Of a DNA stretch of 20,000 nt, positions 17,306-19,794 are shown in pieces. A model generated the notes under the pieces. The model saw only the letters and a list, made by a program, of their open reading frames with translations, did not search any database and was not told the DNA's origin. The stretch's first letter is position 1; every line of letters starts with the position of its first letter. The stretch covers positions 48,810 through 68,809 of the forward strand of contig JYFJ02001832.1 in NCBI GenBank assembly GCA_000934665.2. The letters are read 5' to 3'. The stretch is from Catajapyx aquilonaris. Taxonomy: Eukaryota. A program made the translations under genes and the position numbers.

Positions 17306-17768
17306 TGTAGAACATGTTAGTATTTTTAGGTGGGCGTACAGGTGCAGTACCTTAACAGGCTTTTGGCAGGGTGATGCAACAGGTACGCACGTCCTCTCGG
17401 ATTTAGTTGTATTGCGACTTTCCAAAGTAATGAATTATTGCCATAAGTTAGTTTACTTTGCCCATTTCAGCTCCATTATGAAGGGAATGGAAAGTTAATT
17501 TTAGCCTTGCAACCAATATGCATAACTAGAAAGAATATATTTTGGGCTGTATCACTTGGAAAGCTATGGGGTGGAATAATTCTCAGGATGTTCTGCTTAG
17601 CAAAGAGTGAGTGACAAAACCGAAATTATCATGCCATTATCTCCGTAATAAAGTGGTGGGAAAGGGAGGGACGGGGAGCAGGGGAGTGGGAGTGGGAAGG
17701 GAAGAGGGATTATTAGAGCCATATGCGATGTGGACGTTGGATCCTATACTACAGTACATCATATACAG

Positions 17769-18881
17769 TATGTGGGCGATGAGGCTCAGTCGAAGCGTGG
17801 TATCTTGACCCTGAAGTATCCCATCGAGCACGGTATTGTTACCAACTGGGACGACATGGAGAAGATTTGGCATCACACCTTCTACAATGAGTTGCGTGTC
17901 ACCCCTGCATGAGGAGCACCCCATTCTTCTGACTGAACCGCCCCTCAACCCGAAGGCAAACAGGGCGAAGATGACTCAGGTTGGTGGCTGTCCATGTCAG
18001 CCATGTGGACAAGTTCCATCAGAAGTCTAAATGCATCACTTGTTTTCCAGATCATGTTCGAGACGTTCAACACCCCAGCCATGTATGTGGCCATCCAGGC
18101 TGTGCTGTCCCTGTATGCCTCAGGGCGTACCACTGGTATCGTGCTGGATTCTGGAGACGGTGTTTCTCACACTGTGCCCATTTACGAGGGATATGCCCTC
18201 CCCCATGCCATCCTGCGCATTGATCTTGCTGGGCGGGATTTGACTGACTACCTTAGGAATATCCTCATCGAGCGTGGATGTTCATTCACCACGACTGCCG
18301 AGAGGGACATAGTGCGTGACATTTAATAAGGAGAAGGTGTGTTATGTTGCTCTCGACTTCGAGCAGGAGATGGCCACTGCTGCCTCCTCATCATCCCTGG
18401 AGAAGTCGTACGAGTTGCCTGATGGGCAGGTAAGGCACAGTTAAATCTTATTACACCTGTATATCTGTATTAACAAATTTTTGTCATTGACAGGTCATCA
18501 CCATTGGGAACGAGCGTTTCCGCTGCCCTGAGGCCCTGTTCCAGCCTTCGTTCCTGGGCATGGAGTCCTGGGGAATCCATGAGACCACCTACAACGCTGT
18601 CATGAAGTGTGACATCGACATCCGTAAGGATCTGTATGCCAACATTGTGTTGTCAGGCGGCACTACCATGTACCCCGGGATCGCTGATGATGCAGAAGGA
18701 AATAACTGCTTTTGCCCCATCCACGATGGAGATCAAAATCAATGCTCCTCCAGAAAGGAAGTACTCTGTTTGGATCGGCAGGTTTGGATTGGCCTCACTG
18801 TCGACCTGCCAGCAGATGTGGATCTCCAAGCAAGAGTACGAAGAGTCCGGGCCCTCTATTGTGCACCGCAAGTGCTTTTAG
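17769..18881 (+). pseudogene. Act: Actin pseudogene, inverted segment from [11 protein letters not shown] to IVHRKCF* (exonic parts 17769-17979, 18051-18429, 18494-18881)
   Basis: Unambiguous actin peptides, with GT-AG introns at 17980-18050 (MTQ|IMF) and 18430-18493 (DGQ|VIT). Frameshifts are +4 at ~17907-17910, +4 at ~18324-18327 and -2 at ~18689. Many normally conserved residues are substituted (LMKILT>LRNILI, GGSIL>GRFGL). Confidence 0.96.
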
Positions 18882-18893
18882 ATGTAGGCTGCC

Positions 18894-18923
18894 ATCCTTT
18901 TGGTCCATACCGACCATCACTCC
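18894..18923 (-). pseudogene. Act: Actin pseudogene, non-inverted start of coding exon 2 ([10 protein letters not shown])
   Basis: Minus strand: ggtttttcacAG|gga gtg atg gtc ggt atg gac caa aag gat, ending at the inversion breakpoint. Confidence 0.92.
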
Positions 18924-18969
18924 CTGTGAAAAACCACCAGGTCAGCACACAGAATAGCATGGCCAGCAC

Positions 18970-19639
18970 AATGGGGAACTAGCCTTGGTCTGGGATTTGG
19001 GATTTTTGTTCATAACTAGCTAGCCCATGCCCGTAAACATACATTCCATCACTCTGTTGCATCAAAATGACATTACTGGATAAATTACGGCACATTTAAA
19101 AGTGCCTTCAAAATTGTCGGGAAAAACGCGGAGGCCAATCGAAAGGGTACACCGAAATGCCTGGTTGACTGCGAGATATGAGGAATTTGGCTTTGAATTA
19201 ACCGCGGACGCGACGGAAAGCATTCGCAAGGAAGCTGTAGGCCATCGAGGTGGAGAAAGGGGGCCTTCATGTGCCGAATTCGGGTGACAGATAATTCCTA
19301 CCAGTTGGCACCACTGTCAGCACAGAAGCGACTGAAGCGGCCTGGAATAAATACGCGCCCCGGCCACTATCTTCCTCACGGAATGGGACGGTTGCTAACA
19401 CGAGCGAAGCGTTTTACAACAATGACGGGGCGCGTTCTATAACACCATTTTTGCGTTCATTTCACTTCGCGTGACGTCAACATTTTCTAGGGAAACAGTG
19501 ACGTCACCATTTCCCTACATAAAAACCCCAATTACTCCGGAACGGGAACTGATATCTTAAAACGGAATATGCCAAAAAAATCCAAAAAATATGGGCGAAT
19601 TTATTATGTAGTTTCCAAAATGAAGGCTAGTTCCCCATT
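18970..19639. mobile_element. 670-bp TIR element inserted in actin intron 1 (18924-19666)
   Basis: Perfect 17-bp inverted repeats AATGGGGAACTAGCCTT (18970-18986) / AAGGCTAGTTCCCCATT (19623-19639). Removing it leaves a ~73-bp intron, similar to the other two (71 and 64 bp). TSD unclear. Confidence 0.75.
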
Positions 19640-19666
19640 CCAGACAGGGGTCAGCCAACAACATAC

Positions 19667-19794
19667 CTGATGCCTGGGTCGGCCCACGATGGATGGGAAC
19701 ACAGCTCGGGGAGTATCATCCCCGGCGAACCCGGCCTTGCACATACCGGACCCATTGTCCACAACAAGAGCAGCAATACTTCTTCGTCGTCCAT
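19667..19794 (-). pseudogene. Act: Actin pseudogene, first coding exon (MDDEE/x/[37 protein letters not shown])
   Basis: Minus strand acaaaaATG at 19794, canonical actin N-terminus with a frameshift (2 nt excess) near 19779-19776, and donor CAG|GTATGT at the conserved RHQ|GVM intron position. A candidate 5'UTR acceptor ggttttcAG lies at 19869-19868. Confidence 0.95.

Follow-up and report, generated by a model that had tools for sequence, protein, structure and literature searches.

Actin pseudogenes occur in invertebrate actin clusters. Unprocessed pseudogenes of multigene families are characterised by introns with GT-AG ends, a full set of exons, frameshifts, stops and the replacement of invariant residues, and all of these features are shared by the actin copy described here. 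Unlike ordinary unprocessed pseudogenes, the copy additionally has its last three quarters inverted. Among inversions, close counterparts are the simple balanced ones attributed to NHEJ. They resemble the actin locus, which has two breakpoints, a microhomology of 0-3 nt and 2-3 inserted nucleotides, lacks a flanking inverted repeat and shows neither gain nor loss in the coding part. A difference is that the mechanism at the actin locus is read from the scar alone and not against an ancestral, non-inverted sequence. NHEJ is an accepted route to inversions according to the literature (PMC13721702). NAHR between inverted repeats has the same outcome, namely a flipped segment, but the actin block is without flanking inverted repeats among the 25 longest of 47 inverted pairs, and the sole match at its joints is 3 nt long. 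FoSTeS/MMBIR and short template switches likewise have in common with the locus an inverted segment, microhomology at the joint and a nearby structure-prone G-rich tract. The same source lists replication-based mechanisms among the origins of inversions and describes their products as typically more complicated, in that several breakpoints are involved or other variants co-occur (PMC13721702); the duplications or multi-breakpoint complexity that such mechanisms usually leave behind are not seen in the actin coding part.

The kind of locus is already known, namely an unprocessed pseudogene with a small, repeat-free inversion. An actin pseudogene with an internal inversion was not found by title or abstract among the papers listed in the literature search, which says little, since such scars are seldom written up. 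The DNA analysed here, referred to as the window, is a stretch of 20,000 nt from Catajapyx aquilonaris (Eukaryota), taken from the forward strand of contig JYFJ02001832.1 (positions 48,810-68,809) of assembly GCA_000934665.2. Coordinates below are those of the window.

Organisation of the actin locus

The window contains one complete actin-coding set, which is split over both strands between 17769 and 19794. Codons 1-52 are located on the minus strand (19794-18889) and are interrupted by one intron, and codon 53 to the stop codon, plus a further 6-7 nt, are located on the plus strand (17769-18888), where they are interrupted by two short introns. The features of the minus-strand piece, numbered according to the actin unit of an oyster protein (P0020), are as follows:

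19667-19794, minus strand: exon 1, from ATG to Q42, protein end ...GRPRHQ
18924-19666, minus strand: intron 1, 743 nt, GT-AG, between Q42 and G43
18889-18923, minus strand: start of exon 2, ten codons (18923-18894) plus 5 nt, GGCAG on the gene strand; ...KDGS is in frame if base 18888 is added

The plus-strand piece consists of the following features:

17769-17979, plus strand: rest of exon 2, Y54 to Q122 (YVGDEAQ...MTQ), with an abrupt start at TAT (17769)
17980-18050, plus strand: intron 2, 71 nt, GT-AG
18051-18429, plus strand: exon 3, I123 to Q247
18430-18493, plus strand: intron 3, 64 nt, GT-AG
18494-18881, plus strand: exon 4, V248 to F376, with the TAG stop codon at 18879-18881

All three introns have GT-AG ends and lie between codons. 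Intron 1 is by far the longest (743 nt as opposed to 71 and 64 nt) and is mostly enclosed by a pair of 26-nt inverted repeats (18970-18995 and 19614-19639) that are 85% complementary and 618 nt apart, a unit which is probably the insertion of a small non-autonomous transposon. The interior of this repeat unit holds two TGACGTCA palindromes at about 19462-19509.

The relationship to actin is close, as a 90-aa in-frame block matched Drosophila Actin-5C in the PDB with an E-value of 2.6e-50. When an actin unit was compared with the whole 20-kb window by tblastn, residues 6-42 and 42-52 were found on the minus strand and residues 54-375 on the plus strand, each of them once. Seven of the 15 matches listed were actin matches, and the other eight had E-values of at least 0.96, which is chance level. 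In this comparison, the minus-strand and plus-strand pieces meet at the same codon (52 vs. 53/54), with nothing duplicated and nothing lost on the coding side. Because the two pieces abut at the same codon, one balanced inversion of about 1.12 kb would be by far the simplest account of the layout. A single inversion, with one break inside exon 2 and a second one located 6-7 nt downstream of the stop codon, would explain both junctions together.

The initial annotation of this DNA, made from its letters, had likewise proposed that a genomic actin paralog with introns underwent a single inversion of about 1.12 kb, and this proposal is retained as the most economical one in view of the common meeting codon, the absence of duplication and the three GT-AG introns. 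Its coordinates for the exons, introns, stop codon and CAG/CTG triplets all proved correct when the window sequence was re-read and compared by tblastn. With the block turned back, the spliced sequence could be aligned to the oyster actin unit with 340 of 376 residues identical.

The same layout could arise if different paralogs had each contributed an actin fragment independently, with the 5' part placed on the minus strand and the 3' part on the plus strand, and if separate deletions or fragment capture had juxtaposed the two. Animal genomes are rich in actin paralogs and fragments, as reflected by the many multi-unit actin models obtained in the protein search, and the GC content at third codon positions (GC3) differs slightly between the two parts (0.60 in the N-terminal part vs. 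0.68 in the 322 codons of the rest), but the N-terminal part comprises 52 codons only and the difference is without power. However, fragments of separate origin would have to be exactly complementary, with nothing missing or duplicated, and two more coincident deletions would be required. The truncation points differ by no more than 2-3 nt in a coding sequence that is about 1128 nt long. With independent truncations, the chance of such agreement is about 0.5% by our own arithmetic, i.e. approximately 1 in 200. We therefore consider an origin from two fragments very improbable and treat the two pieces as parts of one inverted copy.

Decay of the actin copy

The pieces were re-inverted and spliced, and the resulting sequence was aligned in a frameshift-aware manner to the first actin unit of P0020. 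Besides the 340 identical residues mentioned above, this rebuilt reading contains five frame-breaking insertions or deletions:

19775-19776, minus strand: +2 in exon 1, after codon 6
18892-18893, minus strand: +2 at the inversion joint (in one of two readings of the joint)
17907-17910, plus strand: +4 (GCAT) in the rest of exon 2, followed by an in-frame TGA
18324-18327, plus strand: +4 (TAAT) in exon 3, which gives TAA TAA in frame
18689, plus strand: -2 in exon 4, in the Arg codon of GIADRMQKE

A reference panel was drawn from 120 fetched proteins, 67 of which contributed a total of 113 actin units of nearly full length; the 120 proteins were matches of the 90-aa block, and multi-unit gene models abound among them. 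The rebuilt reading is up to 91% identical to the units of the panel, and twelve of its residues are present in none of the 113 units. Examples are the replacement of GSI by RFG (18780-18788), of F by C (18807-18809), of Y by C (18279-18281) and of E by A (17965-17967). When the two parts of the copy were considered separately, none of the 52 residues of the N-terminal part and 12 of the 322 residues of the rest were of this kind (Fisher p = 0.39), a comparison which is without power.

The locus is homologous over its whole length to conventional eukaryotic actin (Pfam PF00022), and its introns are kept between codons with canonical splice ends. A full-length actin reading frame is absent, as there are four frame-breaking insertions or deletions besides the one at the joint as well as the in-frame TGA and TAA TAA. 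As read from its sequence, the locus is an unprocessed, decayed pseudogene of an animal cytoplasmic-type actin; it is regarded as unprocessed because the three introns are retained, and it is predicted to make no actin because of the four other insertions or deletions, the in-frame stops and the replacements at otherwise invariant positions. The initial annotation had spoken of an actin gene split by an inversion, and in this respect it has to be revised: with changes of +2, +4, +4 and -2, TAA TAA in frame and twelve unmatched residues, the locus is a decayed pseudogene instead of a working gene. The copy would remain dead with the block turned back, and the inversion need not be the lesion that killed it. 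For the annotation of the assembly, the two halves should be described as one actin pseudogene and not as two partial actin genes on opposite strands.

The scrambled micronuclear actin I gene of ciliates is an example of programmed DNA rearrangement, and the bare pattern at the present locus, one inverted segment with short inverted triplets reminiscent of pointers, resembles it. Programmed scrambling of this type, or an invertible on/off switch, can nevertheless be dismissed as having practically no likelihood. The copy is about 90% identical to animal actins and has spliceosomal GT-AG introns, the re-inverted gene is still broken by four other frameshifts and in-frame stops, and its ends carry no inverted repeats of the recombinase type among the 25 longest of 47 inverted pairs.

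Junctions and probable origin of the inverted block

The ends of the inverted block are defined by two short stretches:

17766-17768, no strand assigned: junction A, CAG directly before the plus-strand actin sequence, which begins at base 17769; CTG at 18889-18891 is the inverted counterpart of this CAG
18882-18893, no strand assigned: junction B, 12 nt that separate the plus-strand stop codon from the minus-strand Asp codon

In junction B, 18887/18888 and 18888/18889 are two possible placements of the break, which could also lie further on, up to 18891/18892. If it is placed at 18888/18889, the block is bounded by the inverted triplets (observed microhomology 3+0) and 2 extra nt are present at the joint, both of which had been noted in the initial annotation. 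If it is placed at 18887/18888, ...AAG GAT GGC AGC joins TAT GTG in frame and gives K-D-G-S-Y-V-G; the Ser codon is kept, one Gly codon is extra, the microhomology is gone and the ends are blunt. These two readings of the joint, a CAG microhomology with 2 extra nt and a blunt in-frame joint, appear equally good and are indistinguishable from the scar. The statement about 2 extra nt is accordingly correct for the former placement and does not apply to the latter. The inverted CAG/CTG match is present as described, but it carries little weight, as 5.7% (0.057) of the placements had a microhomology of at least 3 nt when a 1120-nt block was positioned at random 200,000 times in the same window, and the match vanishes if the break is set at 18887/18888. 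The microhomology-mediated or template-switch mechanism that had been deduced from these 3 nt is for the same reasons uncertain.

Inverted repeats were searched between 17300 and 19400 with a 7-nt seed, and none was found at both junctions among the 25 longest of the 47 inverted pairs; among these 25, the nearest pair to the junctions has a length of 21 nt and a match of 71% and is located 66 and 15 nt outside the breaks. Repeat-mediated recombination can be set aside because none of these 25 pairs flanks the block at its two ends. A 140-aa open reading frame across junction B (region 43-140) was compared with a protein database, and two of the seven candidates were matches. Both are out-of-frame translations of the actin of other organisms, and the match ends at the end of the coding sequence, and they are therefore no evidence on junction B.

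We consider it probable that the locus is an unprocessed actin pseudogene, originally on the minus strand, in which the block was flipped by two breaks and end joining. One double-strand break would have cut exon 2 at codon 52/53, and a second one the sequence after the stop codon, at a distance of 6-7 nt. End joining would then have re-ligated the 1.12-kb fragment between them in the reversed orientation, with a microhomology of 0-3 nt and with 2-3 additional nucleotides near one of the joints. The scar points to this mechanism, which is favoured because the coding side is balanced, the microhomology amounts to 0-3 nt and 2-3 bases were added, and template switching is typically more complicated. 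The end-joining model offers no explanation for the close coincidence of one break with the stop codon, from which it is just 6-7 nt away. Below 17768, the minus strand has a single match to a poly(A) signal, TTTATT at 16811, which is about 950 nt away and uninformative.

End joining and replicative template switching are both compatible with the small insertion and the 3-nt microhomology. A stalled replication fork with two template switches of the FoSTeS/MMBIR type, primed on CAG/CTG, could have generated the inversion, and we regard this as the main alternative, albeit an unlikely one. The inverted 3-nt match is situated exactly at the joints, the 2 extra nt are present at one joint under the microhomology reading, and replication-based mechanisms belong to the listed sources of inversions in PMC13721702. 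The structures expected according to the same text are more complicated and have multiple breakpoints (PMC13721702), whereas here the coding part is without duplication or loss. Moreover, a microhomology of this size is obtained by chance at the frequency given above, and a shift of the break by a single base removes the microhomology and yields the cleaner in-frame joint.

A further feature that may bear on the mechanism is found to the left of junction A:

17658-17708, plus strand: G-run tract fitting a G-quadruplex motif, at least nine G-runs, purine-rich, containing a GGGAGT repeat of 2.7 copies at 17682-17697

No other G-quadruplex motif is present in the 20-kb window. The tract stops 60 nt short of junction A, and it could have stalled a fork. 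Scans of the actin region for Rfam families, tRNAs and tandem repeats gave nothing except the GGGAGT repeat within it. Tracts of the G-quadruplex type are break-prone, and the tract may be a fragile site linked to the break, a connection which is made post hoc. A more far-reaching proposal is that the inversion was the first, disabling lesion of a working actin paralog, that breakage or fork stalling at this tract triggered it and that the population may still carry it alongside an intact, colinear allele; we regard this as speculative and improbable. If it were true, the locus would be a natural case, resolved to the base, in which an invertebrate genome acquired an inversion of kilobase size through structure-prone DNA.

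Under the end-joining model as well as under template switching, the assembled arrangement is taken to be that of the animal, and it appears to be present in its DNA. The alternative is an assembly artefact, in which a mis-oriented 1.12-kb block or chimeric reads produced both joints while the DNA of the animal is colinear. Sampled 31-mers of positions 17000-20000 were present at 74-84% in four runs of one sample and at 23% in one run of another study, which shows the stretch and not the junctions. The runs holding most of the stretch are probably those used to build the assembly, so their support is not independent. In addition, the window is full of hairpin-like inverted repeats (25 pairs), a type of sequence that troubles assemblers. 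On the other hand, the window contains no N and no gap, and no inverted repeat longer than 3 nt was found at the ends of the block among the 25 longest of 47 pairs; there is therefore no graph ambiguity through which an assembler would flip the block. Chimeric reads would require two independent joints that are exactly complementary by accident, the 2-3 extra nt at the joint are not created by a pure orientation error, and in a decayed pseudogene a real inversion costs the animal nothing. Taken together, an artefact seems rather improbable, and the inversion by two breaks and end joining is retained as the preferred reading.

On this reading, a dead gene would have kept a repeat-free inversion of kilobase size that is cleanly resolved to the base, and the locus could serve as a marker or contribute a data point to the study of break repair in Catajapyx aquilonaris. 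It would be a tidy but ordinary trace of DNA breakage in a nonfunctional gene and has little weight for biology at large.

Surroundings in the window

Hairpin-like inverted repeats are abundant in the window as a whole; their arms measure 40-147 nt and their loops are short, and the 25 inverted pairs include those in the following regions:

3740-4161, no strand assigned: hairpin-like inverted repeat
5415-6245, no strand assigned: hairpin-like inverted repeat
7061-7526, no strand assigned: hairpin-like inverted repeat
9173-9407, no strand assigned: hairpin-like inverted repeat
11768-12107, no strand assigned: hairpin-like inverted repeat
17178-17306, no strand assigned: hairpin-like inverted repeat

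These repeats are probably MITE or foldback elements. A weak match resembling tRNA-Ser(GCT) is located at 10605-10676 on the plus strand (31.8 bits vs. a gathering score of 29), and a direct repeat of 124 nt is present at 10611-10734 and 12117-12240 with 81% identity, the first copy of which overlaps the tRNA-Ser-like match. Because of this overlap, the match probably represents a SINE of tRNA origin rather than a genuine tRNA gene. At the other end of the window, an open exon on the minus strand (1-1443, 481 aa) runs off the window. Over about half of its length it is 33-38% identical to Daphnia 'protein prune homolog 2-like' proteins with domains of the BNIP2 and CRAL-TRIO types, and it is a neighbouring gene that is unrelated to the actin locus.
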